A stretch of 64,000 nt of DNA from an uncultured Holophagae bacterium (GTDB lineage: Bacteria > Acidobacteriota > Thermoanaerobaculia > Thermoanaerobaculales > Sulfomarinibacteraceae). The translations under genes were made by a program, and so were the position numbers. Location of the stretch: contig CAVQBD010000009.1 of NCBI GenBank assembly GCA_963710645.1, positions 1,551,199 through 1,615,198 of the forward strand, written 5' to 3'. The notes under the pieces were generated by a model. The model did no database searches. It was not told the DNA's origin and worked only from the letters and a program-made list of their open reading frames with translations. Positions 1,321 to 23,604 of the stretch are shown piece by piece (the first letter of the stretch is position 1; each line of letters begins with the position of its first letter).

Positions 1321-1934
1321 CGATCTGACAGCACTCCCAACCGGTCCAGCCGTTCTTCGAGTTCGACGATCCCGTCGGTCAGAAAGGCCGTCAGACCCGC
1401 CCGTTGGGCCGCCTCCACGTTAACGGCCGTGTCGTCAAAAAAGCAGACCCGACTCGCGTCCACCGCGAGCTTCTGAACCACATGGTCGAAGATCTCGGCC
1501 TCGGGTTTGACCGATCCGATCTCGTTCGAGAAGAAACAGCGCTCGATAAATGGACTGATGGCCTCACTGTGCAGCGGGGTGTGGAGCTCGTTCGAGTTGC
1601 TGAGGCAGGCGAGCCGGTAGTCCTTACGGATGCGACCGAGGAGCTGCCCCGCACCGGGATAGAGACCGCGCGCCCAGCCTGTGAAGAGGTCGAGGAATGC
1701 GTCGGGGGACATGGTCAGATTCCACTCGGTGAGGGAGCCTTCCGCGAACTGCCGCGGCGTCATCTCGCCGCGTTCGAAGAGGCGAACGGACTCCGAGCTG
1801 ATCCAACGCTGGCGGACCACCGTGCGGGGCAGCGGTTTTGAAAGCAACGGGCCCATTTCCTCGAACCCGGCAAAATCGATCAAAACTCCCCCGAGATCGA
1901 AGAGCAGGACGTCAAAGAGATGATGATTGGTCAC
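1317..1934 (-). CDS. HAD-superfamily hydrolase (subfamily IA-like phosphatase)
   Basis: 205 aa. N-terminal LLFDLGGVLIDF (HAD motif I variant) and C-terminal CFFDDTAVNVEAA (motif IV). Its start overlaps the stop of the phytase gene, suggesting translational coupling. Confidence 0.75.
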   Translation of the reverse strand: MTNHHLFDVLLFDLGGVLIDFAGFEEMGPLLSKPLPRTVVRQRWISSESVRLFERGEMTPRQFAEGSLTEWNLTMSPDAFLDLFTGWARGLYPGAGQLLGRIRKDYRLACLSNSNELHTPLHSEAISPFIERCFFSNEIGSVKPEAEIFDHVVQKLAVDASRVCFFDDTAVNVEAAQRAGLTAFLTDGIVELEERLDRLGVLSDR

Positions 1935-3127
1935 GACTCCGGGATCACTCCATTGGGAGCCTTGACGAGATCGTCACCGGCGATGTCGTCCCACGAATAG
2001 AGCTGGAAGGTCCCGTCGTCCGACATGGCGACGAAGATGCCCGACGGGAACCGATCGTCGAGGACCGCCGAGGTGACCTCAGACCCGTCGCTCTCGTTGG
2101 TGGAAGTCCGCACCACCTTGACGAGCCGGTGGTCGTGCGGATCGCCGGGTTCTCCCTCACGTGTGAAGATCCGGAACGCGTTGCCCTGCTGGTCTGAGAC
2201 CAGGATGTAGCCCGTTCCGTCGTTGATCGTGTAGATCGAAATTCCCTCGCGTTGATCGGCGAAGCCATCTGTGCCGAAGATCGCGAGCTCGACGTTCGCA
2301 TCCGGGTGATCGGGGTCCGCGTGGTACTTCCTGACCCCTGCCAGCTCGTCCGAGTAGTAGACGTAGCCGAGGGAGTCGTCGATGGCCACCGATTCGATCT
2401 CGCCGAGTTCGGGCACGCCCTCGTCCATGCTGGTTGCATCGCTGAACGTCCCGAACTCGCGCACCTTGCGTCCCACAACGTGTCCGCCACCGTCATCCTC
2501 GAGCCGGTACTGCCAGAGGTAGGCCCCGGAGGGTCCGGTCTTGCGGCTGACGACTGCAAACACGGCGCTATCGGAGGGACGCTTGTAGAGCGCGATCCCC
2601 ATCGGCAGACGAAGCTCGGGAGCCTCTCCCTCGAAAACCGGGATTCCGCCGTTGTCGATCAAGGTCATCTCAGGCAGACGGAAGACTCGCAGGGTGTTTT
2701 TCGGGCGTTCGGTGGCGACGGCGATGTCGATCGTCTCGCCACCGAGGTTGAAGCCGTACTCGACGTCGATGTTGTTCATCCGCTCGAGGCCGCTGACGGA
2801 TCTTTCGGGGAGGATCCTGCCTTCGAGGTCGAAGACGAAAATCGCCCCGGCCTTGTCGGTGCCGAGGATGAGGCTCTTGCTCGGGTCATCCGGATTCAGC
2901 CAGATGGCGGGATCATCGGAGTCCCTGAGGACCTCTTCAGTCACCACCACCGGTGTGATCACTGGCCCCGGGCTCAGGTTGGTCGGGGCCGGATCGGGCT
3001 CCGTGGTCACAGGTGGTGTGTCGGGCGCGCAGGAGATAAGGCTGAAAGCCATTAGTGCGACGACACACGCAAAGATCAGGTTGCCAATGGATTCGAGTTG
3101 GGTGTGGAATCGGAGTGATCTTTTCAC
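1931..3127 (-). CDS. Beta-propeller phytase (3-phytase, BPP family), lipoprotein
   Basis: 398 aa. Signal peptide with lipobox-like LISCAP. DDPAIWLNPDDPSKSLILGTDK, NNIDVEYGF..IDIAVATER and GYILVSDQQGNAFRIF resemble Bacillus PhyC-type BPP blocks. Confidence 0.85.
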   Translation of the reverse strand: MKRSLRFHTQLESIGNLIFACVVALMAFSLISCAPDTPPVTTEPDPAPTNLSPGPVITPVVVTEEVLRDSDDPAIWLNPDDPSKSLILGTDKAGAIFVFDLEGRILPERSVSGLERMNNIDVEYGFNLGGETIDIAVATERPKNTLRVFRLPEMTLIDNGGIPVFEGEAPELRLPMGIALYKRPSDSAVFAVVSRKTGPSGAYLWQYRLEDDGGGHVVGRKVREFGTFSDATSMDEGVPELGEIESVAIDDSLGYVYYSDELAGVRKYHADPDHPDANVELAIFGTDGFADQREGISIYTINDGTGYILVSDQQGNAFRIFTREGEPGDPHDHRLVKVVRTSTNESDGSEVTSAVLDDRFPSGIFVAMSDDGTFQLYSWDDIAGDDLVKAPNGVIPES

Positions 3128-3186: not shown

Positions 3187-4260
3187 TCAGTTTTTGGGCT
3201 GGTTGTCTGGCGGCGGCGGGGCGGTTGTGGACCGCACCACCAGGCTGGGTGCCACGACCTCGTGGCGGGGCGTGGTCCGCCCCTCGTGAATACGTTCGAA
3301 CAAAAGATCCATGGCTTTTCGCCCCATGTCCTCTCCGGGCTGGTGAATGCTGGTCAGCGAGACGTGACGCAGGGCGGCCAACGAAGTGTTGTCGTAGCCG
3401 ACCAGAGAGACATCTCGGGGAATCTCCAAACCCGCCTCCTCGAGGGCGTTGAGGATGCCGATGGCGCACAGATCGTTGGCTGCGATGATGGCCGTGGGCA
3501 GCATCTGCTGTTCGAGAAGAACCTGTCCACCCCGGTAGCCACCAGATTCGGTGAACCCGCCTTCGACAATGGTCATGTGGTCGGTCAGGCCATGACGACC
3601 CATGGCCCGCTCGTACCCTGTGCGGCGTCTGCGCGCCGCCTCACTCTCACGCCCGGCCACGTGTGCGATGGCGCGGTGGCCGAGGTCCACGCAATGATCC
3701 ACCGCGATCTCGGCACCCATCTCGTTGTCGATGGTGAGGCTGTCGGTAAATTCGTCCGAGGTCCGCCGGCCGAGCACGACCACCGGCACGGCTGGCGCGG
3801 CATGTTCGATCGTGGCGTCATCGATTCTCGAGGTTGCCAGGACCAGCCCGTCGACTCTGAGTTCGAGGAAGCTCTCGATGGCCTCGGTCTCCAGATCCCG
3901 TCGGCGGTCGCTGGTGTTGATCAGGGCCTTGTAACCGAGCCCCGCGGCTTCGTTGAGGATCCCGGAGATGACATCGCCGTTGAAAGGGTTGCGAAGGTCC
4001 GACACCACCACACCGATGATCCTCGTCCGGCGCTGGACCAGACCCCGGGCCATGGCGTTTGGGCGGTAGTCCAGGTCGGTGATGGCCTGGAGAACCGCTT
4101 CCCGTCGGATACCGCTGACCCTATCGTCGCCGCGGATCACCATGGACACGAGGGATTTGGATACACCGGCTCGGTCGGCGACGTCGAGAATTGTCGGTTT
4201 GCGTCGCCGAATTGAGATTTTGGTGCTTTTTCTTGGTGGTGCCACTTGACTTCGGTCCAT
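3187..4260 (-). CDS. LacI-family transcriptional repressor
   Basis: 357 aa. N-terminal HTH TILDVADRAGVSKSLVSMVIRG followed by a periplasmic-binding-protein-like sugar-binding core. Divergent from the TonB-receptor operon. Confidence 0.9.
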   Translation of the reverse strand: MDRSQVAPPRKSTKISIRRRKPTILDVADRAGVSKSLVSMVIRGDDRVSGIRREAVLQAITDLDYRPNAMARGLVQRRTRIIGVVVSDLRNPFNGDVISGILNEAAGLGYKALINTSDRRRDLETEAIESFLELRVDGLVLATSRIDDATIEHAAPAVPVVVLGRRTSDEFTDSLTIDNEMGAEIAVDHCVDLGHRAIAHVAGRESEAARRRRTGYERAMGRHGLTDHMTIVEGGFTESGGYRGGQVLLEQQMLPTAIIAANDLCAIGILNALEEAGLEIPRDVSLVGYDNTSLAALRHVSLTSIHQPGEDMGRKAMDLLFERIHEGRTTPRHEVVAPSLVVRSTTAPPPPDNQPKN

Positions 4261-4274
4261 TCCGTGGATAGATT
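4246..4274 (+). promoter_or_regulatory. Candidate sigma70-type promoter of the TonB-receptor operon
   Basis: TTGACT (4246-4251), 17-nt spacer, TAGATT (4269-4274). The first LacI-type palindrome starts 6 nt downstream, about where the transcription start would be. Confidence 0.35.
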
Positions 4275-4279
4275 CGTAA

Positions 4280-4291
4280 TGGAACGTTCCA
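4280..4291. promoter_or_regulatory. Candidate LacI-family operator O1 (perfect palindrome TGGAACGTTCCA)
   Basis: 12-bp perfect palindrome with central CG. The identical 14-mer ATGGAACGTTCCAA occurs three times in the 233-bp LacI/TBDR intergenic region. Confidence 0.6.
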
Positions 4292-4323
4292 ATTGTATCT
4301 CAAGAAGAACGCTCTTGGCAAGA

Positions 4324-4335
4324 TGGAACGTTCCA
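4324..4335. promoter_or_regulatory. Candidate LacI-family operator O2 (TGGAACGTTCCA)
   Basis: Second identical copy, 44 bp centre-to-centre from O1. Confidence 0.6.
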
Positions 4336-4404
4336 AGGTCAATCAGAAAGGACAACAGTAATGAGATCATCCGACCCAGGGGTTTCATGTTTTCCCTCGG
4401 GGGA

Positions 4405-4416
4405 TGGAACGTTCCA
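4405..4416. promoter_or_regulatory. Candidate LacI-family operator O3 (TGGAACGTTCCA)
   Basis: Third identical copy, 81 bp centre-to-centre from O2. Confidence 0.6.
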
Positions 4417-4492
4417 ACGATCGGTTTGGGGGATCGGTCGTGCGAACTGAACGGCCCGGTTTGGGCCATGAACCAAGGAGAGGGAGGTAGCA

Positions 4493-7192
4493 ATGACGTC
4501 ACATCGTTTCACCCGATACAGGACAGTCTCAACCTTCACACTCGTGATGGCTCTGGTGTCGATCACTGCGGTGGCGCAGGACGGGACCGGGGTCATCACC
4601 GGAACGGTGACTGGATCTGCGGGCAATGCCATTGAGAGCTGTCGGGTCACCATTGAGGACATGAACAGGGAAGCCACCACCGGGATGGACGGCACATACC
4701 GGTTGGCTCCGGTACCGGCAGGAGAGAGAACCCTGGTCTTCAGTTTTCTCGGGCTGCAACCGGGAACCGCCACGGTGACGGTTGTGGCGGGTGAGACCGT
4801 CAACCTGGACATGACCCTTCTCTACGGTGGTGAGATCGAGGTTCGTGGATCACCGTTGCTGGTCGGGCAGGCAAAAGCGCTCAACCAGCAAAAGAACGCC
4901 ATCAATATCTCGAACATCGTGGCCGCCGACCAGATCGGCCGCTTCCCCGACAAGAATGCCTCCGAGGCGACCCAGCGAGTGCCCGGTGTCAGTCTGGCGC
5001 GCGACATGGGTGAGGGCCGTTACGTCATCATCCGCGGCACCGAGGCCAGGCTCAACTCGACCACGGTCAACGGCGAGCGGATTCCGTCGCCGGAAGCGGG
5101 CGTCCGGAACGTCGCCCTCGACACCATCCCGGCTGATCTCCTGGGCTCGATCGTGGTTTCGAAGGCCCTGAGACCGGACATGGACGGCGACTCCATCGGC
5201 GGCACCGTCGATCTGGTGACCATGAGGGCTCCCGAAGAGACTCGGGTGTCGGCCGCCCTTGGTTTTGGCTACAGCGAGCTGATGGAAGAAACAGCCCCCA
5301 CCGGCACTGCCACCTTCGGGACTCGATTCGGACCCGATTCGAAGTGGGGTGTGCTGGTATCGGGAAGTTATAGCGACACCAAGCGTGGGGCCGACAACAT
5401 CGAGCCGGCGTACGACGACGGCGAACTCGAAGAACTCGAGATGCGCGATTACACCACCGAGCGTCAGCGGTCCGGCATCACAGCCGACCTCGACTACCGG
5501 GCAAACGCCCGCTCGAACTACTATCTCCGCGGTCTTTGGACCAACTACGTCGACGATGAAATCCGGCGCGCCAAGACCAACAAGGTTGCCGATGAGGAAC
5601 TCGAGCGATCGCTCAAGGACCGCAAGCAGGAGTCCTACATCAACTCCATTTCCTTCGGCGGCGAGAACAACATCGGTGAGGCCTTCGTCCTCGACTACCG
5701 CGTGATGTACAACAAATCACAAGAAGAAACCGACCACCAGTACACCTCGGCCTTCGAGATGGGAGACGTGATCTTTGATACCAACGTCAGTCCCGATTCC
5801 ATCGACCCGAACAACATTCAGGCCAATCCGCTAAACGAGGATCCCGCCGATTTCTGGTTCGCGGACATCGAGGACCTGAGCAAGCAAGCCCACGAGGAGG
5901 ACTTTGTCCTCGCCGCCAACCTCACCAAGGGCTTCTACAAAAACGCAGGTTTCAGCGGGCTTTGGAAGGTGGGCGCGAAGTACCGGACCAAGAACAAAGA
6001 CCAAAACTACGACGTCTACGACCTCGAGGCGGATGACGACTTGAACATGGTTCCGTTTCTGGACGACTGGAACTCCGAGACCCCGTTCTTCAACGGGATC
6101 TATGGTGATCAAATTTTCCCGTTCCAGGACCCCGATCTCATGAGGGAGCTCGGCGCGAGCGGGCTCCTGGAATCCGAGAGAAATCTGGAGGAGGATCTCG
6201 CCGACTTCGATATCACCGAGGACACCCTGGCCGCCTATGCCCTGGGCGAATTCCTCTTCGGCGCGAAATCCACCTTCATGGGTGGCGTTCGAGTGGAGAG
6301 CACGTCGGATGACTACATGGCCTACGAGCTGATCCTGGATGAAGAAGGAGACGCGGTGTCGCTGTTGCCGGTTTATGGCGACAAGAGTTGGACCGAGTGG
6401 CTGCCCCAGTTCCACTTCATCTACAAGACCGGAAACGACTCTCAGCTCCGCGCCGCCATCACCCGCAGTCTGGCCCGGCCAAACTTCGAGGACATGGCCC
6501 CGTGGCGGCTGACCAACCTGGAGGACCGTGAAGTCGAACTCGGCAATCCCGATCTGGATGTCACCACCGCCTGGAACCTCGATCTCATGTGGGAGAAGTA
6601 CCTGCAACCGGTGGGCATCCTCTCGGCTGGGGTCTTCTACAAAGACCTGACCGACTACATCTACATCTTCCAGGTCGATGACGTCATCGAAGGCGAAGAT
6701 GTGGAAATCACCCAGCCGCGAAACGGCGACAAGGGCACCTTGGCGGGCCTCGAGTTCGCCTTCCAAAACCAGTTCACAAACTGGGATGGATTCTGGGGAG
6801 GATTTGGTCTCTACCTCAACTACACCTACGTCGACTCCGACGCCAAGTACCCGGACCGTGAGTCTACCTCGCTGCCCGGGCAGTCGGAACACGTGGGCAA
6901 CCTCGCGCTGGTCTACGAGAAGTACGGCATCACCACCCGGCTGGCATACAACTACAACGGCAAACAGCTGATTGAGGTTGGCGGGGACGCCGACGAGGAT
7001 ATTTATGTCGACGACCACGGCCAGCTCGACTTCATGTTCCGTATCCAGGTCGCGAAGAGGTTCAGCATCATCGCCGAGATCATCAACATCACCGACGAGC
7101 CGTACACCGCCTATGAAGGCACCCCGGACCGGATCCGCCAGCAGGAGTACTACAGCTGGTGGGCGACGCTCGGCGTGAGGTTCGACCTTTAG
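4493..7192 (+). CDS. TonB-dependent outer-membrane receptor with N-terminal carboxypeptidase-regulatory-like domain
   Basis: 899 aa. Signal peptide, CarbopepD_reg-like GVITGTVTG...GTYRLAPVPAGERTLVFSFLG, plug region (NISNIVAADQIGRFPDKNASEA) and long beta-barrel ending ...TLGVRFDL. Strong SD GGAGAGGGAGG upstream. Confidence 0.9.
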   Translation: MTSHRFTRYRTVSTFTLVMALVSITAVAQDGTGVITGTVTGSAGNAIESCRVTIEDMNREATTGMDGTYRLAPVPAGERTLVFSFLGLQPGTATVTVVAGETVNLDMTLLYGGEIEVRGSPLLVGQAKALNQQKNAINISNIVAADQIGRFPDKNASEATQRVPGVSLARDMGEGRYVIIRGTEARLNSTTVNGERIPSPEAGVRNVALDTIPADLLGSIVVSKALRPDMDGDSIGGTVDLVTMRAPEETRVSAALGFGYSELMEETAPTGTATFGTRFGPDSKWGVLVSGSYSDTKRGADNIEPAYDDGELEELEMRDYTTERQRSGITADLDYRANARSNYYLRGLWTNYVDDEIRRAKTNKVADEELERSLKDRKQESYINSISFGGENNIGEAFVLDYRVMYNKSQEETDHQYTSAFEMGDVIFDTNVSPDSIDPNNIQANPLNEDPADFWFADIEDLSKQAHEEDFVLAANLTKGFYKNAGFSGLWKVGAKYRTKNKDQNYDVYDLEADDDLNMVPFLDDWNSETPFFNGIYGDQIFPFQDPDLMRELGASGLLESERNLEEDLADFDITEDTLAAYALGEFLFGAKSTFMGGVRVESTSDDYMAYELILDEEGDAVSLLPVYGDKSWTEWLPQFHFIYKTGNDSQLRAAITRSLARPNFEDMAPWRLTNLEDREVELGNPDLDVTTAWNLDLMWEKYLQPVGILSAGVFYKDLTDYIYIFQVDDVIEGEDVEITQPRNGDKGTLAGLEFAFQNQFTNWDGFWGGFGLYLNYTYVDSDAKYPDRESTSLPGQSEHVGNLALVYEKYGITTRLAYNYNGKQLIEVGGDADEDIYVDDHGQLDFMFRIQVAKRFSIIAEIINITDEPYTAYEGTPDRIRQQEYYSWWATLGVRFDL

Positions 7193-7208
7193 GGAAACGA
7201 GAAACATC

Positions 7209-8240
7209 ATGAAGGACGTGATCGTCGGCGTTGTCGGCATCGGTCGAATCGGCCGGATGCACGTGTACAACTTGGTGCACCGGATCCCATGGGCCCGGGT
7301 GAAGGCGGTGGCCAGCCCGCATATCGACGTGGACTGGGCTCGTCAAATGGACATCCCCGTGGCCACCACGGATGCCGATGCGCTGTTTCACGATCCTGAA
7401 ATTCAGGCAATCGTCATTGCTTCCCCCTCGGGGCGGCACGTCGAGCTGATTCGGCGTGCCGCCCATTCGGGAAAGCACATCTATTGTGAAAAACCGGTCG
7501 CCTTCGAGGAGGAACCCATTCTCGAGGCGATGCAAGCCGTTGAGACCGCCGGGGTTCAGCTCCAGGTGGGTTTCAATCGCCGCTTCGACCCCAGCATCTG
7601 CCGGATGGCCGAAGCGGTCCGCGACGGAGCGGTGGGCTTGGTCGAGGGTGTACGGATCGTCAACCGCGATCCGTCCGCCCCGCCCATCGATTTTGTGCGG
7701 CGGTCCGGCGGCATGTTCTTCGATTTCACGATCCACGATTTCGACACGGCCAGGTTTCTGAGCGGCAGCGAGATCGAGGAGGTCTACGCGGCAGCGGCGG
7801 TGCTGATCGACCCGGAGATCGGCGCCGCCGGTGACATCGACACTGCGCTCTTGACCCTGCGGTTGGCCAACGGCGCCCTGTGCACCATCGACAACAGCCG
7901 CCAGACTAACTACGGCTATGACCAGCGGTTCGAGGTCTTCGGATCAAAGGGTAATCTGGTGGTGGACAATCTCCGACCCACCACCATGGAGGCCTTTCTG
8001 GAAGGCGGAGTTTTTGCAGACAAGCCCCTTCCCTCGTTTCCCGATCGATACCAGGACGCATTCGTCAGCGAGCTGGAGGCCTTCGTCGGCTGCGTAGCCG
8101 ATGGTTCGCCGGTGTCGGTCACGGCCGCCGACGCGCTGGCGTCGGTGCGGGCCGCAAAAGCGGCAAGGACCTCGATGTTGGAAAACAGACCGGTGCGGGT
8201 CGCATCTGTGACGACGACCGGGGAAGGGGTCGGCCGATGA
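7209..8240 (+). CDS. Gfo/Idh/MocA-family NAD(P) oxidoreductase, inositol 2-dehydrogenase-like (paralog 1)
   Basis: 343 aa. Rossmann start VGVVGIGRIGRMH and EKP motif (IYCEKPVA), in an inositol-pathway context. Confidence 0.8.
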   Translation: MKDVIVGVVGIGRIGRMHVYNLVHRIPWARVKAVASPHIDVDWARQMDIPVATTDADALFHDPEIQAIVIASPSGRHVELIRRAAHSGKHIYCEKPVAFEEEPILEAMQAVETAGVQLQVGFNRRFDPSICRMAEAVRDGAVGLVEGVRIVNRDPSAPPIDFVRRSGGMFFDFTIHDFDTARFLSGSEIEEVYAAAAVLIDPEIGAAGDIDTALLTLRLANGALCTIDNSRQTNYGYDQRFEVFGSKGNLVVDNLRPTTMEAFLEGGVFADKPLPSFPDRYQDAFVSELEAFVGCVADGSPVSVTAADALASVRAAKAARTSMLENRPVRVASVTTTGEGVGR

Positions 8241-14961: not shown

Positions 14962-14971
14962 GACAACTACG

Positions 14972-15775
14972 ATGAAACTCAGCGTCGTGCTGTCAACCCA
15001 CGCCGCCGCCTTCCAGGCGGTGGCATTCAAGGGCGATTTCGAGGCCAACGTGGCCAAGATCGCCGGTTGGGGTTATGACGGTGTCGAACTCGCCGTGCGG
15101 GATCCAAATTTGGTGAACGCCGGCGAGCTCGAACGCGTCATCACCTCGCAGAATCTGGTCGTGCCCGCCATTGGCACCGGTCAGGCGTGGGGCGAGGAAG
15201 GACTTTCGTTCACCAGTGACGATGGGACGGTTCGGGCCGCAGCCATCGACCGAATCATCAGCCATATCCCGTTGGCCGAGCACCTGGACGCCATCGTGAT
15301 CTTGGGCCTGATTCGCGGTGTCACACCGGAGGGTCAGACCCACGATCAATCCATGGCCCACCTGGTGGAGGCCATCCGCGAATGCGCCGTGGCCGCCGAG
15401 GGGACCGGGGTGCGATTCGCATTGGAGCCAATGAACCGCTACGAAACTGACCTCATTCACTCGGCGGCGCAAGGGCTGGATCTGGTGGAGAGGGTGGGTC
15501 GAGACAACTTTGGATTGTTGCTCGACACCTTTCACATGAATATCGAGGAGCCCTCCATCGAGGAGAGCATCCGACTCTGCGGCGAGCGGATCTTCCATTT
15601 TCACGTGGCGGACTCGAACCGCTGGTACCCCGGAGCCGGGCATCTCGATTTCTCCTCGATTCTGCAGACTCTTGCCGAAACGGGCTTCGGCGGCTTTGTA
15701 TCCGGTGAATTCATGCCGCTGCCCGACGCCGATTCATCAGCCCAACGCGGCATTGCTCACTTGAGGAGCCTGTGA
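14972..15775 (+). CDS. iolO: Xylose-isomerase-like TIM-barrel sugar(-phosphate) isomerase/epimerase, 5-keto-L-gluconate epimerase (IolO)-like
   Basis: Track ORF 14903..15775 trimmed to the ATG at 14972 (MKLSVVLSTHA), 10 nt after the upstream stop. FALEPMNRYET and LLDTFHMNIEE are typical AP-endonuclease-2/TIM-barrel metal-site blocks. Confidence 0.65.
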   Translation: MKLSVVLSTHAAAFQAVAFKGDFEANVAKIAGWGYDGVELAVRDPNLVNAGELERVITSQNLVVPAIGTGQAWGEEGLSFTSDDGTVRAAAIDRIISHIPLAEHLDAIVILGLIRGVTPEGQTHDQSMAHLVEAIRECAVAAEGTGVRFALEPMNRYETDLIHSAAQGLDLVERVGRDNFGLLLDTFHMNIEEPSIEESIRLCGERIFHFHVADSNRWYPGAGHLDFSSILQTLAETGFGGFVSGEFMPLPDADSSAQRGIAHLRSL

Positions 15776-15814
15776 CACACGGACTGTGGGCGGCCGGCTG
15801 AACGGAGACAGTCT

Positions 15815-17290: not shown

Positions 17291-17394
17291 GGAGGATTTC
17301 GAGATGTGTCGCCCGATGCGCCGTGGGCCGTTTTATGGATCTCCGGCCGTTGGGCCTTTGTGATCGCTGAATTTCCCTGACCCCGGGGGACGAT

Positions 17395-18699
17395 ATGACC
17401 ATTGGAACGAGCAGCACAGCCCGCCCCCTCACCCAAAGCGAGGTTCGCGGCATCATGGCCGAAGCTCTAGACCATCTCGAGCTGGATGGTCAGCGGATAT
17501 TGGTCATCATTCCCGATGGGACCCGTACCGCGCCCATCCCCCTCATGAGGCGTCTGTTCAGTGAGTTGCTTGGTTCACGGGTCGAAAAAATCGACTACCT
17601 TGTGGCCCTCGGAACCCACCCACCCATGGACGACGGCGCCCTGTCCCGTCTACTGGGCACCAAGGTGCTCGACGGCAAGGCTGGATCTTCGAGGGTCTTC
17701 AACCATCGATGGGATGTGGAAGAGACCTTTGTCACCCTGGGCACGGTGCCCGCCGCCGAGGTGGCTGCAGCCAGCGGCGGCCGACTCGAGCTCGACATTC
17801 CGGTGCGCCTCAATCGGTTGGTGGGCGAGCCGGACGGTTCGAGCCCCTATGATTTGATCGTGGTCTGCGGCCCGGTATTCCCCCATGAGGTCGCGGGATT
17901 TTCCGGCGGAAACAAGTACTTCGTGCCCGGGGTCGCGGGCCCCGAGATCATCAACGTGACCCACTGGATCGGGGCCCTGGTCACCAGCCGCGAGATCATT
18001 GGCGTCGCCGACACCCCGGTGCGGCGGCTGATCGATCGCGCGGCGTCCCATGTTGCAACCCCCACCCTGTTGGTGGCCATGGTGCTCGAGGGCACATCGC
18101 TCCACGGGCTCTTCGTCGGTGGGATGGAGGAGACCTGGCGTGCTGCCGCGAGGTTGTCGGCCGAGCTGGACATCGAATGGGTCGACAAGCCCTTTGAAAG
18201 GGTGCTGTCCATGGTGCCCGAGATGTATGACGATCTGTGGACCGGCGCCAAGGGTATGTACAAGCTCGAACCCGCCATCGCCGATGGCGGCGAGGTGGTG
18301 GTCTACGCGCCGCACATCACCGAGGTCTCTTATGTCCACGGGCGGTGGCTGGACGAGATCGGTTACCACGTCCGAGATTACTTCGTCGAACAGTGGCATC
18401 GATTTATGCATGTGCCCTGGGGCGTGATCGCCCACTCCACCCATCTCCGGGGCGACGGCAGCTTCATCGACGGCGTCGAGCGGCCACGGATCCGGGTGAC
18501 TCTGGCCACCGGAATCCCGCGGGAGCGCTGCGAGTCCATCGGTCTCGGCTACCTGGACCCCGCGACGGTGGACCCGGAGGAATGGGCCGGGCGGGAGGAG
18601 GAGGGCGTGATGCTGGTTCGAAGGGCCGGCGAACGGCTGTACCGACTGAAAGAGGAGATCCCGGCGACGAGACTTTCCAGTTCACAGGAGGGGAACTGA
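17395..18699 (+). CDS. LarA-family (nickel-pincer-cofactor dependent) 2-hydroxyacid racemase/epimerase homolog
   Basis: 434 aa. DUF2088/LarA N-terminal pattern ILVIIPDGTRTAP. FPHEVAGFSGGNKYFVPG carries the His and the Lys that tethers the cofactor in LarA. Confidence 0.75.
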   Translation: MTIGTSSTARPLTQSEVRGIMAEALDHLELDGQRILVIIPDGTRTAPIPLMRRLFSELLGSRVEKIDYLVALGTHPPMDDGALSRLLGTKVLDGKAGSSRVFNHRWDVEETFVTLGTVPAAEVAAASGGRLELDIPVRLNRLVGEPDGSSPYDLIVVCGPVFPHEVAGFSGGNKYFVPGVAGPEIINVTHWIGALVTSREIIGVADTPVRRLIDRAASHVATPTLLVAMVLEGTSLHGLFVGGMEETWRAAARLSAELDIEWVDKPFERVLSMVPEMYDDLWTGAKGMYKLEPAIADGGEVVVYAPHITEVSYVHGRWLDEIGYHVRDYFVEQWHRFMHVPWGVIAHSTHLRGDGSFIDGVERPRIRVTLATGIPRERCESIGLGYLDPATVDPEEWAGREEEGVMLVRRAGERLYRLKEEIPATRLSSSQEGN

Positions 18700-18730
18700 C
18701 AGGCCGGCACGGACCTATCAGGCCTGAGGA

Positions 18731-18772
18731 AGAAAATGAGAAATGAGAAATGAAAAATGAAGGACGTGAAAA
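18731..18772. repeat. Heptamer-periodic tandem array (AGAAAAT GAGAAAT GAGAAAT GAAAAAT ...)
   Basis: About 6 units of 7 nt, read directly, in the 159-bp gap between the LarA-like gene and phoD. Confidence 0.8.
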
Positions 18773-18858
18773 TCGAGACTCGGATTTCGGGACTCGTAAA
18801 TGTCTGATAACGAGAATGTGGTGGTGGCCAATGAGCCATCACCTGTGGAAGGTTTGAC

Positions 18859-20298
18859 ATGAGATTATCCTCCGTTGTTTCGCGATGCGTAATGCTCTCG
18901 CTGATTGTTTTCACCCTGACGTCACCCGCACTGGCCGCGTCGCGGGACGACGATGGGTACCCGAGGCTGATGCAGGGTCCAATGGTGGGGACCGTGACTC
19001 CTACCGAGGCACATATCTGGCTTCGAACCACGGGCGAGTATGTCGTCACCATCGAGTACGGCACCGGCTTCGAACTTCGATCGGCTCTCACCACCGAACC
19101 GGTGACGGCGAGCAAGACTGCGGACTACACGCTGGTGGTGACGATCCCAGATCTCCAACCCGCCACCGAGTACTTCTACCGCGTACTGGTCGACGGCCAG
19201 GGCGACAAATATCTCGAGGAATATCCGCCGTTCCGATTCAAGACCGCACCGGCCCCGGGAACCAGCGCCAGCTTCAGGGTCGGCTTCGGTTCCTGTCCCA
19301 AATACCAGGATGACCGGATGCAGCCGATCTGGCCGGTCATCTCGGGATTCGAACCGGATCTGTTTTTCTGGATTGGGGACAACATCTACGGCGACACCCT
19401 CGACCCGGACATCCTGCGTGAGGAGTACCGCCGCCAGCGCGATGTCCCCGGGTTGCAACCCCTGCTGCACAACACCTCGCACCTCGCCGTCTGGGATGAT
19501 CATGATTTCGCGCTCAACAACCACGATCGAACCAACCCCATCAAGGACCGGGCGCTCGAGGTGTTCAAGGACTACTGGGCCAACCCTGCCTACGGACTGC
19601 CCGATGTACCGGGTGTGTTCTACAGCTACAGCTTCGGCGACGTTGATTTCTTTTTCATCGACGATCGCTATTACCGGGATCCCAACTCGGATCCGGACAC
19701 CCCGGAGAAGACCATGTTGGGACCCGCCCAGTTTGACTGGCTGCTCGAGCGGTTGTCGGCGAGCACAGCGGTCTTCAAGGTGATCGTATCGGGAAGCGGC
19801 TTCAGCAAGGCCAAGGGCGAGGGCGGCGACTCGTGGGCCGCGTTTCTCAACGAACGGAACAGGCTTTTTGACTTCATTCGGGACGAGGAGATCAGCGGCG
19901 TGGTCCTGCTGACGGGCGACTCCCACGTGGGCGAACTCAACGTGATTCCGTGGTCGGAGCGGGGCGGCTACGATCTCTACGATCTCGTGAGTTCGCCACT
20001 GGCCCAGCGCAACCCGGATTCATGGCTGCACCGGAGACCCGAGCGGCGCATCCGTCCGGTGTACTTCAGGGGAAGCAGTGTCGGCGTGGTGGACTTTCTG
20101 CTCGATGATCCGCCACGCTTGATGTACCGCATCATCGACATCCACGGCCGCAACGTCTGGGAGCCATTCGTTGTGCGGGCGGACGAGCTGGTCAACGGCG
20201 TGACATCCTGGCCCGATAAGGTCCACAGCGATTCCAGACAACGCCAGGAGAACTACGATGCTGGCAAGGGCTATTACGAGATCGAGGCGGAGGACTAG
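18859..20298 (+). CDS. phoD: PhoD-family alkaline phosphatase/phosphodiesterase, secreted
   Basis: 479 aa. Signal peptide. FWIGDNIYGD, AVWDDHDF and LLTGDSHVGE metallophosphatase blocks typical of PhoD. Confidence 0.85.
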   Translation: MRLSSVVSRCVMLSLIVFTLTSPALAASRDDDGYPRLMQGPMVGTVTPTEAHIWLRTTGEYVVTIEYGTGFELRSALTTEPVTASKTADYTLVVTIPDLQPATEYFYRVLVDGQGDKYLEEYPPFRFKTAPAPGTSASFRVGFGSCPKYQDDRMQPIWPVISGFEPDLFFWIGDNIYGDTLDPDILREEYRRQRDVPGLQPLLHNTSHLAVWDDHDFALNNHDRTNPIKDRALEVFKDYWANPAYGLPDVPGVFYSYSFGDVDFFFIDDRYYRDPNSDPDTPEKTMLGPAQFDWLLERLSASTAVFKVIVSGSGFSKAKGEGGDSWAAFLNERNRLFDFIRDEEISGVVLLTGDSHVGELNVIPWSERGGYDLYDLVSSPLAQRNPDSWLHRRPERRIRPVYFRGSSVGVVDFLLDDPPRLMYRIIDIHGRNVWEPFVVRADELVNGVTSWPDKVHSDSRQRQENYDAGKGYYEIEAED

Positions 20299-20301
20299 CC
20301 G

Positions 20302-21504
20302 GTGACAAACAATTGCCATTGCCGTGGGTTTCGCGGCTCCTTTGCTGGTTCACTCGTCGTTCATCTGACGGTGCTGACGCTCGTCCTCATGGCAGGCGGG
20401 CTGGGCGCTGAAGCGGCGGAATCTCCGGACGGGGAACTGGTCTTCATCGTTGCCGCGGACATGAGGAACTTCGCCGCGGACGGTGTGTGGTCAAAGAATT
20501 TCTCGGGCGCGTGCGAGGCGGTGAAAAAGGTCGGTGCGGGTTCCTTCATGGTCAGTCCGGGTGACCTCGATGTGGATCCGCCGTCGGCGGTCAGGGACAT
20601 GGTGAGTACGGTCCTCGGCGACGACTATCCGTGGTACCCCATCCTCGGCAACCACGACCCCGAGTCTCCTTCCACCATGAAGTACCTGCGCGAGTACAGC
20701 CAGAGTGTGCCCAACGTGGTGAATCGGGGGCCAAAGGGTTGTGAGGCCACCACCTATTCCTTTGACTGGTCGAACGTCCACTTCGTGGTGCTCAATCAGT
20801 ATTTCGACGGCGTCAAGGACTGGGGTGTCGAGGGTGACGTGGTTCCCGATCTATTGGAGTGGCTCGAGGCGGATCTGGCCGCCAACACAAAGGACCGCGT
20901 CTTTGTCCTCGGACACGAGCCGCTGATCGTCATGCCCGACATGGACAACGGGCGGATCCGCCACCAGGGCAACTCCCTCGACGAGCACCCGGAGAACATG
21001 TTCCAGTTCCTCAAGTTATTGAAGGAGTACGAAGTTGTGGCCTATATCTGCGGTCACACCCACAACACCTCCTATTCGAACATCAACGGCGTGTGGCAGC
21101 TCGATGCAGGTCACGCCCGGGGCCTCGAGGAGGCCTCTTACGCCGACCGAATGTACGCCGCCATCTCCGCAGCGATCGAGACCGGACGGGCCCATGGCGT
21201 CGGCGAGGCGGAGTCCATCAGGCAACTGTATAGAGACGACGCCTATCACGTGGACTATTGGTTCAAATACCTGGGGCTGGCGGGCCAACCTGTGGTTCAA
21301 ACCATGGCCCAGTTCTACGACGAGTACGGTACCGACCCCGGTGCACGAGACCGGTACTACGAAGCTCAGATCAAGGGCCGGGGCCAGACCCCAAGCACGT
21401 TTTTGAAAGTCACGGTGGGCGCGGCGAAGGTCACGGTGGATTTTTATCGCGACGACGCACATGGCGGGCCATACACTCTGCGAGAGACCCTCATTCTGGA
21501 TTGA
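20302..21504 (+). CDS. Calcineurin-like metallophosphoesterase, secreted
   Basis: 400 aa, GTG start. Signal/TM segment. SPGDLD, GNHD, VLGHEP and CGHTHN motifs. Confidence 0.8.
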   Translation: MTNNCHCRGFRGSFAGSLVVHLTVLTLVLMAGGLGAEAAESPDGELVFIVAADMRNFAADGVWSKNFSGACEAVKKVGAGSFMVSPGDLDVDPPSAVRDMVSTVLGDDYPWYPILGNHDPESPSTMKYLREYSQSVPNVVNRGPKGCEATTYSFDWSNVHFVVLNQYFDGVKDWGVEGDVVPDLLEWLEADLAANTKDRVFVLGHEPLIVMPDMDNGRIRHQGNSLDEHPENMFQFLKLLKEYEVVAYICGHTHNTSYSNINGVWQLDAGHARGLEEASYADRMYAAISAAIETGRAHGVGEAESIRQLYRDDAYHVDYWFKYLGLAGQPVVQTMAQFYDEYGTDPGARDRYYEAQIKGRGQTPSTFLKVTVGAAKVTVDFYRDDAHGGPYTLRETLILD

Positions 21505-23604
21505 GTGAATCCGTACGACGGGTATGTGATGGTAGACACCGACACGAATCAAGCGCTGATCAGGTTCGGGCGAGTGGCGTTGATCGTGACGGTGTTCATA
21601 TTTCTCAGCCCAATTCTCGCCGTCGCGATGGAGCTCGAAGGCGTGCGTCTCAGCTCGAAACCGACGATCGATGGCGTTGTGGACGAGGCTGTGTGGTCAG
21701 AGGCGGCGGTTGCCGAGGGATTCGTTCAGTTTGTGCCCAAGTTCGGACAACCCTCTCCATATCGAACGGTGGTCCTCGTGGGCTCCACCGAGGATGCCCT
21801 GTACGTCGCCTTCAAGTGCTTCGATCCCGAGTCGAAGGACATCTCCGCCGCGGTGACGTCTCGTGATGGTTCCCTAGAAAATGATGACTCTGTCGCCCTC
21901 CTCCTCGATACCTTCCACGACCAGCGGAGGGCCTACTACTTCATCACCAACACCCTCGGGGTTCAGGGGGATGGCAAGGTGGCCGACAACGGTCGGGTGG
22001 TGGAGAACGAGTGGGATGGGACGTGGGAGTGCGCCTCCAGCAGATCGGCGGACGGCTGGACGAGCGAGTTCGCGATTCCATTCAGGATGCTCCGCTTCAG
22101 CGGTGGTGAAGACACTACCTGGGGCATTAATTTTCACAGATACGTCCCCCGCCGGCTCGAGACATCGGTGTGGTCGGGTCCCGGGGAGTCGGAGTGGCGG
22201 GTCTCGAGTTTCGGGCAACTGACGGGGCTCGATCTTCGAACCACGGAAGCCAAGAAGTACGCCATCATCCCTTACGGGCTTGCGGTGGTGGAGAAGGGCC
22301 AGGAGCCCCATTACGAGGCGGGGGTAGATCTCAGGTTTCGGATTGCCCAGGGGCTGAGCGCCGATCTGACGTTGAATCCCGACTTCGCCCTCGTGGAAGC
22401 CGATGTGGAGCAGATCAACCTCACCAGATACGAGCTCTTTGTTCCGGAAAAAAGACCCTTCTTCCTTGAAGGCAACGAGATGTTCGATCAGCGGATCCGT
22501 CAGTTCTACAGCCGGCGGATCGGCGACATCGATTGGGGCGGCAAGCTCACCGGCAATGTGTTGGGCTTCGACGTGGCCGCCATCGCCTCGGTGGCCGATC
22601 TCCATCCGGATGAAGATCTCGAAAACGTGGACGATTCGGCGGACTACGCCGTGGTGCGTCTCCAGCGGGGGATTTTCGGCGGCTCGACGGTGGGGCTACT
22701 GGCGGCGAACCGTAGCGTCGGCTCGGACCGAGCCGGGTCCTTTGGCCTGGACACGACCCTCTTCTTCACCGAAACCATCGGCATGACAGCCCAATTTCTC
22801 CGCTCCCACGGGCCCGAGCACGACGGTGCCCAGGGTTGGTTTCTGAGACCGGCATATGACTCGGCCAACTCCCATTTTCACATCAGGTACACCAACCTCG
22901 ATGTGGGTCTCAAGGACAACGTCAACGCGATCGGTTTTTTGGAGGACGACGACCGCAAGGAGTTCGACACCGAAGTCAAACACATTTTTTGGTTCGAGAG
23001 CAGTGCGTTTGAGAGGCTCGAGGGCAAGATCAACTACAACCGCTTCTGGAGTCAGGACGGGATCCTGAGGAGCTGGGAGCTGGAATCCGATGTGGAGATC
23101 GTATTCACGAACTTCTGGCAGGTCGAGCTTTCCTACGTGGATGCCTACGAGCTCTTTGAAAAGGAGTACCGTAACTCAATCACTAGCCTGCAGGTGGGCT
23201 GGGACAACCGGGCCGGCAAGTTCTTTGCCGTCGAGGTGGGGACCGGAAAGAACTTCGACTCGGATCTGAGGCTGGCGACCCTCGAGACGGGGCTCATCCT
23301 GTTCAGCGCGCTGGATCTGTCATACGAGGCCACCTGGCTCGATCTCGACCCGGACCCGGAGAACGAGAGCACGTGGATCCATGTCTTCCGGGTGAACTAC
23401 CACTTCACGAACGACCTCTATGTCAATCTCTTCTGGCAGACAAACTCGGTCATCCAGAAGGAGAACATCCAACTCCTCGCCGTGTGGCGATTCATGCCTC
23501 CGTTCGGGTCGCTCCAGGTGGCATATCAGCGCGGGACCTCGGAGATCGGGACCCCGTCGGATCAGGGAGACTCGCTCTTCACGAAGTTGCAGTGGGTGTT
23601 CTGA
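21505..23604 (+). CDS. DUF5916 / carbohydrate-binding-family-9-like outer-membrane-associated protein
   Basis: 699 aa. The start is uncertain: GTG at 21505 or ATG at 21529. N-terminal KPTIDGVVDEAVWSEA...FVQFVPKFGQP is typical of CBM9-like/DUF5916 proteins. The C-terminal part is beta-rich and ends in F. Confidence 0.6.
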   Translation: MNPYDGYVMVDTDTNQALIRFGRVALIVTVFIFLSPILAVAMELEGVRLSSKPTIDGVVDEAVWSEAAVAEGFVQFVPKFGQPSPYRTVVLVGSTEDALYVAFKCFDPESKDISAAVTSRDGSLENDDSVALLLDTFHDQRRAYYFITNTLGVQGDGKVADNGRVVENEWDGTWECASSRSADGWTSEFAIPFRMLRFSGGEDTTWGINFHRYVPRRLETSVWSGPGESEWRVSSFGQLTGLDLRTTEAKKYAIIPYGLAVVEKGQEPHYEAGVDLRFRIAQGLSADLTLNPDFALVEADVEQINLTRYELFVPEKRPFFLEGNEMFDQRIRQFYSRRIGDIDWGGKLTGNVLGFDVAAIASVADLHPDEDLENVDDSADYAVVRLQRGIFGGSTVGLLAANRSVGSDRAGSFGLDTTLFFTETIGMTAQFLRSHGPEHDGAQGWFLRPAYDSANSHFHIRYTNLDVGLKDNVNAIGFLEDDDRKEFDTEVKHIFWFESSAFERLEGKINYNRFWSQDGILRSWELESDVEIVFTNFWQVELSYVDAYELFEKEYRNSITSLQVGWDNRAGKFFAVEVGTGKNFDSDLRLATLETGLILFSALDLSYEATWLDLDPDPENESTWIHVFRVNYHFTNDLYVNLFWQTNSVIQKENIQLLAVWRFMPPFGSLQVAYQRGTSEIGTPSDQGDSLFTKLQWVF

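Follow-up and report, generated by a model that had tools for sequence, protein, structure and literature searches.

A divergent LacI-associated locus that may couple phytate hydrolysis and uptake to inositol catabolism in an uncultured acidobacterium

Overview

A stretch of 64,000 nucleotides from contig CAVQBD010000009.1 of an uncultured Holophagae bacterium (the whole stretch is referred to below as the window) contains a divergent gene cluster in which genes for a beta-propeller phytase (BPP) homologue, a TonB-dependent receptor (TBDR) and several phosphatases are joined to genes for the degradation of inositol. The analysis reported here favours, with moderate confidence, the interpretation that this cluster is a carbohydrate-utilization (CUT)-type locus whose substrates are inositol phosphates, phytate and its stereoisomers being the most likely ones, in an uncultured Thermoanaerobaculia/Sulfomarinibacteraceae-like acidobacterium. 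The coupling of the phytase, uptake and inositol genes is real and lineage-specific. The identities of the genes, their synteny and the operator are direct observations, while the substrates of the locus, the location of its enzymes, its regulation and every other step of the mechanism proposed below are what we infer from them.

Organization of the locus

The gene identities are based on a listing of open reading frames (ORFs) and on searches of the window proteins with the Pfam and NCBIfam profiles (Table 1). Each of the gene types that had been named in an earlier interpretation made from the letters of the DNA (the sequence-only reading) was recovered in its place, and the phytase, PhoD-like and TBDR calls of that reading hold up in the hidden Markov model (HMM) searches. 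The minus-strand arm of the locus has three genes, for the LacI-family repressor, the lipoprotein BPP and a cytoplasmic phosphatase of the haloacid dehalogenase (HAD) type. The plus-strand arm (4493-23604, 19.1 kb) has 14 genes, in the order TBDR, IolG1, IolG2, a major facilitator superfamily (MFS) transporter of the organophosphate:phosphate antiporter (OPA) type, PfkB, IolM, IolG3, IolN, IolO, UxaE, a LarA-like gene, a PhoD-like gene, a metallophosphoesterase (MPE) gene and a DUF5916 gene; the count of 16 given by the sequence-only reading is not borne out, and the genes which that reading itself enumerated also sum to 14. The HAD and BPP genes overlap by 4 nt, and the BPP gene is co-oriented with the LacI gene and begins 59 nt downstream of it. 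The plus arm had been described as having very short or overlapping gaps, which is accurate for most of them (-4 to +39 nt) but not for those between UxaE and the LarA-like gene (104 nt) and between the LarA-like and PhoD-like genes (159 nt).

The listed starts of two genes were revised. The MFS gene starts at 9232 and not at 9001, as indicated by a database protein of 448 aa (P0241) that is 100% identical, and the longer ORF was rejected: its 77-codon upstream extension (9001-9231, plus strand) overlaps IolG2 and is a high-GC artefact. The IolO start at 14903 was rejected in favour of 14972, the NCBIfam match beginning at residue 24 of the long ORF.

Conservation and distribution

The distribution of the locus was mapped by scanning the GTDB species representatives with IolM, and the 80 loci obtained were annotated by tblastn with the window proteins. 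The arrangement MFS-PfkB-IolM is found in 22 of the 80, all of them in metagenome-assembled genomes (MAGs) of Acidobacteriota type, a few of which are binned elsewhere; where loci of this group reach far enough to the left, all have the TBDR (16 of 16) and LacI (14 of 14), and 13 of 14 have BPP. Homologues of the TBDR number more than 100, at 59-87% identity, and the named ones belong to Thermoanaerobaculales, Candidatus Sulfomarinibacteraceae and other Acidobacteriota MAGs. The order of an ABC transporter gene, then HAD-BPP-LacI, divergent from TBDR-IolG-IolG-MFS-PfkB-IolM-(IolG)-IolN-IolO and onward, is kept in relatives whose TBDRs are 71, 68 and 59% identical to that of the window. An arrangement that is syntenic in more than 20 genomes of species level lies well outside what chance would produce.

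The remaining 58 of the 80 loci are plain LacI-IolG-IolM-IolN-IolO operons, with or without ABC transporter genes, which have no TBDR and occur mostly in Chloroflexota (Anaerolineae and others) and also in Desulfobacterota, Ignavibacteria and Armatimonadota. BPP and PhoD occur in only one of these 58, L032, which is a rearranged acidobacterial locus (BPP on one strand, LacI and ABC genes on the other, then PhoD divergent from IolG1 and the genes that follow it). Because the plain inositol operons found elsewhere have neither TBDR nor phosphatases, the locus is best described as a composite: an ordinary Thermotoga-type inositol operon that has gained, as a package, the genes by which a diderm cell could handle phosphorylated inositol.

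The phosphatase genes are not confined to the distal end that they occupy in the window. In L014 and L017 they lie inside the catabolic string, in the order IolO-PhoD-UxaE-SDR-LarA (SDR denoting a short-chain dehydrogenase/reductase), and in the rearranged L086 the LarA-like gene is followed by genes for a 6-phosphogluconate dehydrogenase (6PGD) and a phosphofructokinase (PFK), by PhoD-MPE-DUF5916 and, further on, by ABC genes. PhoD, the metallophosphoesterase and DUF5916 thus move as a module, often among catabolic genes (L014, L017, L010, L011) and also in L086, where DUF5916 is 59% identical. The neighbourhood comparison which the sequence-only reading had proposed therefore comes out in its favour, the BPP, TBDR, MFS, phosphatase and inositol genes being linked throughout the lineage and also after rearrangement (L032, L086).

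A few individual loci depart from the common pattern. In L008 (2917-5610) the TBDR appears in at least 6 tblastn pieces in different frames, which could represent a pseudogene or frameshifts of a long-read assembly; assembly errors are favoured because IolG1, PfkB and PhoD also give only partial matches there. In L004 (2686-7388, minus strand) genes for a TRAP transporter (DctPQM), an NAD-binding dehydrogenase and a second xylose-isomerase-like TIM-barrel protein lie between BPP and HAD, and in L001 (7005-7469, minus strand) a DctP remnant lies at the same place. These insertions suggest an extra uptake branch for acid sugars in the same regulon.

Operators and promoters

The palindrome TGGAACGTTCCA, each copy of which is embedded in ATGGAACGTTCCAA, occurs three times in the 232-bp spacer between the LacI and TBDR genes (4261-4492), compared to 0.45 occurrences expected by chance, and none of 100 shuffles reached this count. 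No further site with at most one mismatch was found in the 64 kb; a single site with two mismatches (26129-26140) lies inside glpK. All orthologous spacers hold two or three copies of the palindrome, and the 44-bp spacing between the first two operators is kept in most of them. The regulator has the features of the LacI family, namely an HTH_LacI domain and a periplasmic-binding-protein-like domain, together with an operator palindrome that has CG at its centre, and the TGGAACGTTCCA sites are predicted to be the LacI-type operators that it binds. The repressor is probably autoregulated. In 18.8 kb scanned, the only two promoter-like matches are a facing pair in this same spacer, and the start sites predicted from them both fall on O1.

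The comparative evidence is most informative where the gene order has changed. In L032 the palindrome adjoins BPP, sits between BPP and LacI, and is present twice in the divergent spacer between PhoD and IolG1, and it is because of this placement that BPP, PhoD and the iol genes can be tied to one regulator.

Table 1. Features of the locus and of the genes that adjoin it, with the positions counted from the first nucleotide of the window
Feature	Position	Strand	Evidence and remarks
CUT2-type sugar ABC transporter ATPase, 3' part	13-1320	+	PF00005 x2; xylose/ribose-type models 450-460 bits; cut by window start
HAD-IA phosphatase, YihX-like	1317-1934	-	PF00702 51 bits; NF006991 glucose-1-phosphatase 79 bits, below cut-off
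BPP homologue, lipoprotein	1931-3127	-	PF02333 153.7 bits (gathering score 21)
LacI-family repressor	3187-4260	-	PF00356 + PF13377/PF00532; best NCBIfam RbsR-like 232 bits, below cut-off
Sigma-70-like promoter match	4246-4274	+	TTGACT-17-TAGATT; consensus match only
Putative operator O1	4280-4291		perfect palindrome TGGAACGTTCCA; LacI/TBDR spacer
Sigma-70-like promoter match, facing	4321->4292	-	TTGCCA-18-TACAAT; consensus match only
Putative operator O2	4324-4335		palindrome TGGAACGTTCCA; 44 bp from O1
Putative operator O3	4405-4416		palindrome TGGAACGTTCCA; 77 nt upstream of TBDR start codon
TBDR	4493-7192	+	TIGR01782 TonB-Xanth-Caul 494 bits (cut-off 310); CarboxypepD_reg, Plug, barrel; signal peptide
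IolG1, inositol 2-dehydrogenase paralogue	7209-8240	+	TIGR04380 395.6 bits (cut-off 355)
IolG2, inositol 2-dehydrogenase paralogue	8237-9235	+	TIGR04380 442 bits; PDB 3EZY E 1.5e-101
OPA-family (GlpT/UhpC-like) MFS	9232-10578	+	PF07690; PDB 1PW4 GlpT E 2e-54
PfkB (ribokinase-family) kinase, TM0415/IolK-type	10588-11541	+	PDB 1VK4/5YSP (TM0415) E 1e-34
IolM, scyllo-inosose 3-dehydrogenase (Zn-ADH)	11575-12732	+	NF041097 536 bits (cut-off 450)
IolG3, third IolG-like dehydrogenase	12763-13803	+	TIGR04380 302 bits, below cut-off 355
IolN, 3-dehydro-scyllo-inosose hydrolase (ring opening)	13837-14961	+	NF041098 311 bits (cut-off 245); creatininase fold
IolO, 5-keto-L-gluconate epimerase (TIM barrel)	14972-15775	+	NF041099 332 bits (cut-off 300)
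UxaE, tagaturonate/fructuronate epimerase	15815-17290	+	PF16257 455 bits
Terminator-like hairpin + T-run after UxaE	17311-17328	+	weak call: such sites not above shuffles in count
LarA-like, nickel-pincer-dependent putative hexonate (mannonate/gluconate) epimerase	17395-18699	+	PF09861 71.6 bits
PhoD-like phosphatase, secreted	18859-20298	+	PF09423 100 bits (cut-off 27), PhoD_N/DUF7800
MPE, secreted	20302-21504	+	PF00149 40 bits; signal-like N-terminus
CBM9-like + DUF5916 protein	21529-23604	+	PF19313; homologues also with PF06452
SDR, candidate fructuronate reductase/D-mannonate oxidoreductase	23636-24424	-	NF006132 271 bits (cut-off 281)
glpK, then glpD-like FAD glycerol-3-phosphate dehydrogenase	24601-27734	+	NF000756 780 bits (glpK); divergent from SDR gene

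Receptor and transporters

The subfamily in which the TBDR is placed, TIGR01782, is the carbohydrate-type TBDR subfamily of Xanthomonas and Caulobacter. Against the SusC/RagA model TIGR04056 the receptor reaches only 24.8 bits, compared to a cut-off of 368, and no SusD-family match was found among the locus proteins in the HMM searches. The resemblance to a polysaccharide-utilization locus (PUL) that had been proposed for the architecture therefore does not apply in the strict sense, but the gene content does fit the definition of the Xanthomonas CUT locus. No receptor of proven unrelated specificity is a close relative of it, and its similarity to proteins in the PDB is limited to the plug domain (CirA). 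It would serve as the outer-membrane importer of inositol phosphates or inositol.

The MFS protein retains the substrate- and phosphate-binding residues of GlpT (R45, K80, H165 and R269, in the alignment to 1PW4) and scores 261 bits, below the cut-off, against the model for the PgtP subfamily. A homologue search returned relatives at 78% identity or more and no distant contexts that bear on specificity, the family being abundant. The protein can be understood as an organophosphate:phosphate antiporter whose substrate would be inositol monophosphate.

The truncated ABC transporter ATPase gene at the start of the window converges on the HAD gene. In the relatives, a fused permease and binding-protein gene and a CUT2 ATPase gene always precede HAD/BPP, and the gene is probably the last one of an inositol ABC importer operon that forms part of the conserved neighbourhood.

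Phytase, phosphatases and the DUF5916 protein

Residues 70-370 of the BPP homologue align to the Bacillus PhyC/TS-Phy structures 3AMR and 1H6L (E 1e-32). The protein has the lipobox LISC (SLISC, cleaved before APDT), followed by an Ala/Pro/Thr-rich linker, and the lipobox cysteine and a long linker are also present in 14 orthologues. It is accordingly predicted to be a lipoprotein on a long linker, from which neither the membrane nor the face that displays it can be deduced, and the description of it as a surface hydrolase in the sequence-only reading goes beyond this evidence. The motifs of the BPP family are D-A-[ATE]-D-D-P-A-[ILV]-W and N-N-[VI]-D-[ILV]-R-[YDQ] (PMC4017775); in the present protein the first reads RDSDDPAIW, in which the DDPAIW core is kept and the first three positions differ, and the second reads NNIDVEY, in which Glu replaces Arg.

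The HAD phosphatase has no signal peptide and is a conserved neighbour of BPP in the relatives; it would strip the last phosphate off imported inositol monophosphate. The PhoD-like protein matches PDB entries 9UYA and 2YEQ (the latter at E 2e-14) and scores only 53 bits, compared to a cut-off of 1000, against NF058638, the equivalog model for Bacillus-type PhoD. Its N-terminus (MRLSSVVSRC...) is a Sec-type signal peptide in which no twin-arginine motif was found, so it is not of Tat type. The metallophosphoesterase weakly resembles purple acid phosphatases in the PDB (E 2e-5), a class some members of which are phytases. The signal peptides of both proteins recur in most orthologues.

The DUF5916 protein, which travels with these two phosphatases, was modelled with AF2 from 35 homologues (mean pLDDT 64). 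The N-terminal domain of the model matches CBM9 structure 1I82 (TM 0.70), and in the remaining approximately 470 residues there are about 25 antiparallel strands, which match LptD, usher and TonB-dependent transporter (TBDT) barrels at low TM scores. The model points, with moderate confidence, to a probable large outer-membrane beta-barrel with a CBM9-like domain.

Inositol catabolism

To judge by the protein families it encodes, the catabolic route is of the T. maritima type (IolG-IolM-IolN-IolO/UxaE) and not the classical iolABCDE pathway: no homologues of IolE, IolD, IolB, IolC, IolJ or IolA were found by HMM searches among the 17 locus proteins, and the TIM-barrel protein is IolO, not IolE. 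IolG2 also matches PDB 4HKT, which is annotated as an inositol 2-dehydrogenase. IolG3, which is found in most but not all orthologous loci, perhaps serves another inositol stereoisomer. Soils and sediments hold mixed phosphates of myo-, scyllo- and chiro-inositol, and the possession of three IolG paralogues fits such a mixture.

Beyond UxaE, the route would continue through the SDR encoded just outside the interval to which the locus had been assigned. This protein is a probable fructuronate reductase and pathway member, because its score is near the cut-off and because in L009, L014 and L017 its orthologues (75-77% identical) separate UxaE from the LarA-like gene. The LarA-like protein has its best family match in NF052594, 'nickel-dependent putative hexonate epimerase', with 189 bits where the cut-off is 500, and its best structure match in PDB 4NAR (E 1e-59). 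Its sequence contains GTH, then PHE-x8-K, and then a His 16 residues past the Lys, which conserves the His/His/Lys/His spacing of the cofactor and catalytic residues of LarA (His108, His174, Lys184 and His200 in L. plantarum numbering). In the T. maritima uxaE-uxaD-gntE-gntK-gnd route the protein would correspond to the gntE step, an assignment that draws on the literature and on NCBIfam. In L086 (4323-7221) a 6PGD gene stands directly after the LarA-like gene and is followed by a PF00365 PFK-family gene before PhoD-MPE-DUF5916. This gene order supports an exit from mannonate through gluconate to 6-phosphogluconate, and the PFK-family enzyme could be pyrophosphate (PPi)-dependent.

The locus also encodes a kinase related to TM0415, which phosphorylates myo-inositol to Ins(1)P and has a PPi signature consisting of K171, R229, R232, F221 and M266 (PMC5931981). 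In the alignment to 1VK4/7E4L the protein keeps all five signature residues and the catalytic D234, and is predicted to be a pyrophosphate-dependent inositol kinase. Its acceptor site agrees only in part with that of TM0415: D11, Q141 and R145 are kept, while I76 is replaced by M and N78 by L. Homologues of TM0415 with N78L yielded inositol monophosphates other than Ins(1)P (PMC5931981).

Proposed mechanism

The mechanism that we favour begins with a LacI repressor that, bound to the three TGGAACGTTCCA palindromes, would shut both arms until an inositol-derived effector appears. The lipoprotein BPP, on its flexible tether, would then begin the Ca-dependent dephosphorylation of InsP6 (phytate), and the TBDR would move this large and highly charged molecule, or the InsP3-5 formed from it, over the outer membrane. 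Dephosphorylation would be carried on in the envelope by the PhoD-like enzyme and the purple-acid-phosphatase-like metallophosphoesterase, with the CBM9/DUF5916 barrel as a constant but unexplained companion. Free inositol would enter the cytoplasm via the adjacent CUT2 ABC transporter, and residual inositol monophosphate via the GlpT-like OPA antiporter in exchange for phosphate (Pi), after which the HAD enzyme of the cytoplasm would remove its phosphate. Inositol and inositol phosphate would be interconverted by the TM0415-type PPi-dependent kinase. The three IolG paralogues would oxidize myo- and other inositols to scyllo-inosose, which IolM, IolN and IolO would turn into D-tagaturonate. 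UxaE would convert this to D-fructuronate and the SDR would produce D-mannonate, from which the LarA-like epimerase would probably make D-gluconate, to be passed to central metabolism by genes outside the locus.

Since the locus is predicted to be under LacI control rather than under the control of phosphate starvation, its primary use would be the supply of carbon and energy, and phosphate would be a by-product. In metagenomes of marine sediments, Thermoanaerobaculia rank among the leading classes of phytase carriers, in recent work that treated phytate only as a source of phosphorus (PMC12406696).

Several observations weigh against this mechanism and temper the confidence that can be placed in it. 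No characterized close relatives of the TBDR, the MFS or the HAD protein were found, and the ligands assigned to them are guesses from context. The MFS fails the NCBIfam models for named specificities (GlpT 227 bits with a cut-off of 632, UhpC 287 with 564, PgtP 154 with 750 and UhpT 135 with 497), and the BPP, to judge by its two altered motifs, diverges from the characterized enzymes. The adjacent glpK-glpD genes and the GlpT-like MFS fit a glycerophospho-inositol substrate equally well. An inositol kinase and a phosphatase in one compartment would constitute a futile cycle unless their substrates differ, so that their coexistence suggests distinct substrates or a reversible kinase used in the PPi-forming direction. 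The final catabolic steps (gntK/gnd or uxuA/kdgK/kdgA) were not found in the 64-kb window, and the "full inositol pathway" of the sequence-only reading was therefore an overstatement: the route is of the Thermotoga type and incomplete within the interval, which lacks its end steps, and its SDR step is probably encoded on the minus strand beyond DUF5916.

A further difficulty concerns the reach of the repressor. No operator was found in the window upstream of the LarA-like gene or of PhoD-MPE-DUF5916, which are preceded by the hairpin after UxaE and by the 159-nt AT-rich gap, respectively. The hairpin may split the plus arm into sub-operons, and the LarA-like gene and PhoD-MPE-DUF5916 may be regulated separately; their expression could result from read-through or, alternatively, from a separate promoter in the AT-rich gap. 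The proposal that the whole locus stands under one repressor consequently holds for the two promoters in the spacer but does not extend with the same force to the genes behind the hairpin and the gap. Rfam and tRNA scans of the whole window gave no matches, and thus no riboswitch or leader RNA to account for the 104- and 159-nt gaps. Within the 159-nt gap, at 18733-18762 (plus strand), there are approximately four 7-nt direct repeats (GAAAATGA GAAATGA GAAATGA AAAATGA), which are AT-rich in a genome with 62% GC and could provide PhoD-MPE-DUF5916 with a promoter of its own or a site for a regulator. In L006, the closest relative, the corresponding gap measures only about 37 nt.

Alternative interpretations

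The alternative that best survives comparison with the data, although it is unlikely, is that the locus serves the high-affinity scavenging of free inositol, the TBDR importing inositol in the way that SuxA imports sucrose, while the phytase and phosphatase genes serve phosphorus acquisition, doing no more than lying close by or providing Pi, and phytate is not a significant carbon source. TBDRs of CUT loci can indeed carry small sugars (PMC1790865), BPP-TBDT pairs elsewhere are phosphate-starvation genes (Fjoh_1367/1368, PMC8115612), and the PhoD-MPE-DUF5916 genes lack an operator in the window. The arrangement of the phosphatase genes is nevertheless difficult to reconcile with a role apart from inositol use, for the BPP gene follows LacI on the same strand at a distance of 59 nt and overlaps HAD, the LacI-type palindrome of L032 stands directly upstream of both BPP and PhoD, and phosphatase genes are found among the catabolic genes in L014, L017 and L086. 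In addition, the plain inositol operons of other phyla have neither TBDR nor phosphatases, and the extra genes therefore appear to have arrived as a functional package.

Ranking next, and also unlikely, is the possibility that the substrates are inositol phosphodiesters derived from lipids or osmolytes, such as glycerophosphoinositol, the headgroups of phosphatidylinositol or inositol-phosphoceramide, or di-myo-inositol phosphate. The PhoD-like protein and the metallophosphoesterase would then be diesterases, the MFS would import glycerol-3-phosphate or inositol phosphate, and GlpK/GlpD would burn the glycerol while the Iol enzymes burn the inositol. Characterized PhoD enzymes do possess diesterase activity, and the structure closest to the MFS is that of GlpT (1PW4, E 2e-54), but against the GlpT equivalog model it stays far below the cut-off (227 bits compared to 632). 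The locus is followed at once by a bona fide glpK (780 bits) and a glpD-like gene, and glpK adjoins the locus in L008 too; these genes, however, have no operator, form a separate transcription unit and are adjacent to the locus in that one relative only. A patatin-like phospholipase is also encoded in the window, at 32163-33059 (minus strand). Set against these points, the BPP family is known only for the hydrolysis of Ca-phytate and is kept in 13 of 14 loci, and small diesters should need no TonB-dependent receptor.

That a phosphate-scavenging island and an inositol operon have been juxtaposed by accident and are functionally unlinked is highly improbable, given that the synteny extends down to about 55-59% TBDR identity across more than 20 species-level genomes, that the linkage persists through rearrangement (L032, L086) and that the operator is held in common.

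The preferred interpretation, uptake and degradation of inositol phosphates, can be extended by a proposal about energy that we consider improbable but worth stating. The OPA transporter and the TM0415-type kinase, which are always adjacent in these loci, may constitute an energy-conserving entry route in which inositol monophosphate (InsP), an end product that most phytases are unable to hydrolyse, enters in exchange for Pi. The kinase, working backwards, would then transfer the phosphoryl group to Pi (InsP + Pi -> inositol + PPi), so that it is not lost through hydrolysis, and the PPi would feed PPi-dependent glycolytic enzymes or a proton-pumping pyrophosphatase of this anaerobe. If this were true, the locus would provide the first bacterial inositol-phosphate transporter and the first physiological role for the PPi-dependent kinase class, and DUF5916 proteins would gain a role in the handling of organophosphates at the outer membrane.

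Significance

Inositol phosphates are a large organic phosphorus pool of soils and sediments and are usually discussed only as a source of phosphorus, which one organism sets free while others are fed with the inositol. Recent studies of phytate and inositol likewise put the emphasis on cross-feeding, from organisms that produce phytase to those that degrade inositol. From the locus it would seem that the uncultured anaerobic Acidobacteriota that abound in sediments import and fully degrade inositol phosphates themselves, and control of the carbon type, by LacI, would make this use "selfish" in a manner akin to the utilization of polysaccharides. It offers candidates for three things of which no example has been characterized: a TBDR specific for phytate or InsPx, an inner-membrane inositol-phosphate transporter, and a physiological setting in which the PPi-dependent TM0415 kinases and the widespread outer-membrane proteins of the DUF5916/CBM9 type would act. 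The Thermotoga-type inositol pathway, which has been little studied, is moreover extended to mesophilic bacteria of sediments that belong to several phyla.

Neighbouring genes

The glpK-glpD genes beside the locus could be a coincidence or a hint of glycerophospho-inositol substrates; in L008 glpK adjoins the locus on the opposite strand compared to its arrangement in the window. The FGGY kinase encoded there was considered as the gluconokinase of the pathway and rejected, since it scores 780 bits as a glycerol kinase and 149 as gntK. An ORF of 219 aa at 24589-25248 (minus strand), antisense within glpK, was rejected as spurious: it has no Pfam match and the wrong codon-position GC, and is a high-GC artefact.

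About 5 kb downstream of the locus, at 28510-29505 (minus strand), there is a gene for a CarboxypepD_reg + TPR protein of approximately 325 aa. A protein of the same make-up is encoded near the DUF5916/ABC/ROK cluster of the distant locus L087 (9389-10357, minus strand), and it may be a conserved neighbour. A metallophosphoesterase of 620 aa with a C-terminal SCO1664-like region is encoded at 40937-42799 (plus strand); neither it nor the patatin-like phospholipase has an operator nearby or an obvious tie to the locus. Two ORFs with gene-like codon-position GC and no Pfam match (55446-56147, minus strand, and 56231-57772, plus strand) adjoin a gene for a B12-binding radical SAM protein (57857-59368).

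Comparison with known systems

The closest counterpart of the catabolic part of the locus is the inositol operon of T. maritima, TM0411-TM0416 (IolR, IolM, IolN, IolG, IolK/TM0415 and IolO), together with the InoEFGK ABC transporter and the uxaE-uxaD-gntE genes (Rodionova et al. 2013, 2012; Nagata et al. 2018). Both systems have IolG, IolM, IolN and IolO, which in the present locus are supported at the equivalog level (for two of the three IolG proteins), a TM0415-type kinase with the PPi signature, UxaE, an SDR, a LarA-like protein (best match 4NAR) and an adjacent CUT2-type ABC importer. They differ in that the regulator is of the LacI family here and of the ROK family in T. maritima, in that three IolG paralogues are present here, and in that the BPP, TBDR, OPA-type MFS, HAD, PhoD-like, metallophosphoesterase and CBM9/DUF5916 genes go beyond TM0411-TM0416/InoEFGK as described in the literature consulted. 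Compared to the classical myo-inositol pathway of Bacillus, Salmonella and rhizobia (IolG-IolE-IolD-IolB-IolC-IolJ-IolA), the first step by IolG and the use of inositol as a carbon source are shared, but the ring is here opened hydrolytically by IolN after a second oxidation.

The overall architecture is that of a CUT locus, defined as a TBDR gene clustered with genes for an inner-membrane transporter, one or more degradative enzymes and a regulator (Blanvillain et al. 2007, PMC1790865), all of which are present here (TBDR; MFS and ABC transporter; BPP, PhoD-like protein and metallophosphoesterase; LacI). As in the loci of Xanthomonas and Caulobacter, for example the suxR-suxC-suxA-suxB sucrose locus, a TBDR, an inner-membrane MFS, a degradative enzyme and a repressor are combined in a divergent arrangement, and TIGR01782, to which the TBDR belongs, takes its name from the genera where such loci were described. 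The present locus differs from these in its acidobacterial host, in its predicted substrate, which is an organophosphate rather than a neutral sugar, and in having several envelope phosphatases, two inner-membrane importers (ABC and OPA-MFS) and a 10-step catabolic pathway. The SusC/SusD PULs of Bacteroidota and their "phosphate utilisation systems" (PusCD) similarly combine a TonB transporter, envelope hydrolases, an inner-membrane importer, cytoplasmic catabolism and a local regulator, but the present locus is unlike them in that no SusD-like lipoprotein was found and the TBDR is not of the SusC/RagA type.

The adjacency of a BPP and a TBDT is itself already known, from Fjoh_1367/Fjoh_1368 of Flavobacterium johnsoniae (Lidbury et al. 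2021, PMC8115612), from Citromicrobium (Tang et al. 2012, PMC3400609) and from Lim et al. 2007. In those pairs, as here, a PF02333 phytase is encoded beside a TBDT, and their authors also infer that the TBDT transports phytate or its products. They are, however, induced by low Pi, serve phosphorus nutrition and have no inositol catabolism attached, whereas in the present locus the BPP and TBDR genes stand on either side of a divergent promoter region, predicted to be controlled by LacI, and are joined to genes of carbon catabolism. The claim of the sequence-only reading that no locus of such a make-up was known thus has to be narrowed to this fusion, the literature consulted containing no description of one regulated locus that joins a BPP, a TBDR, the IolGMNO pathway and a TM0415-type kinase. 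Every part of the locus is of a known kind, and it is their combination which, as far as the literature search shows, is newly described.

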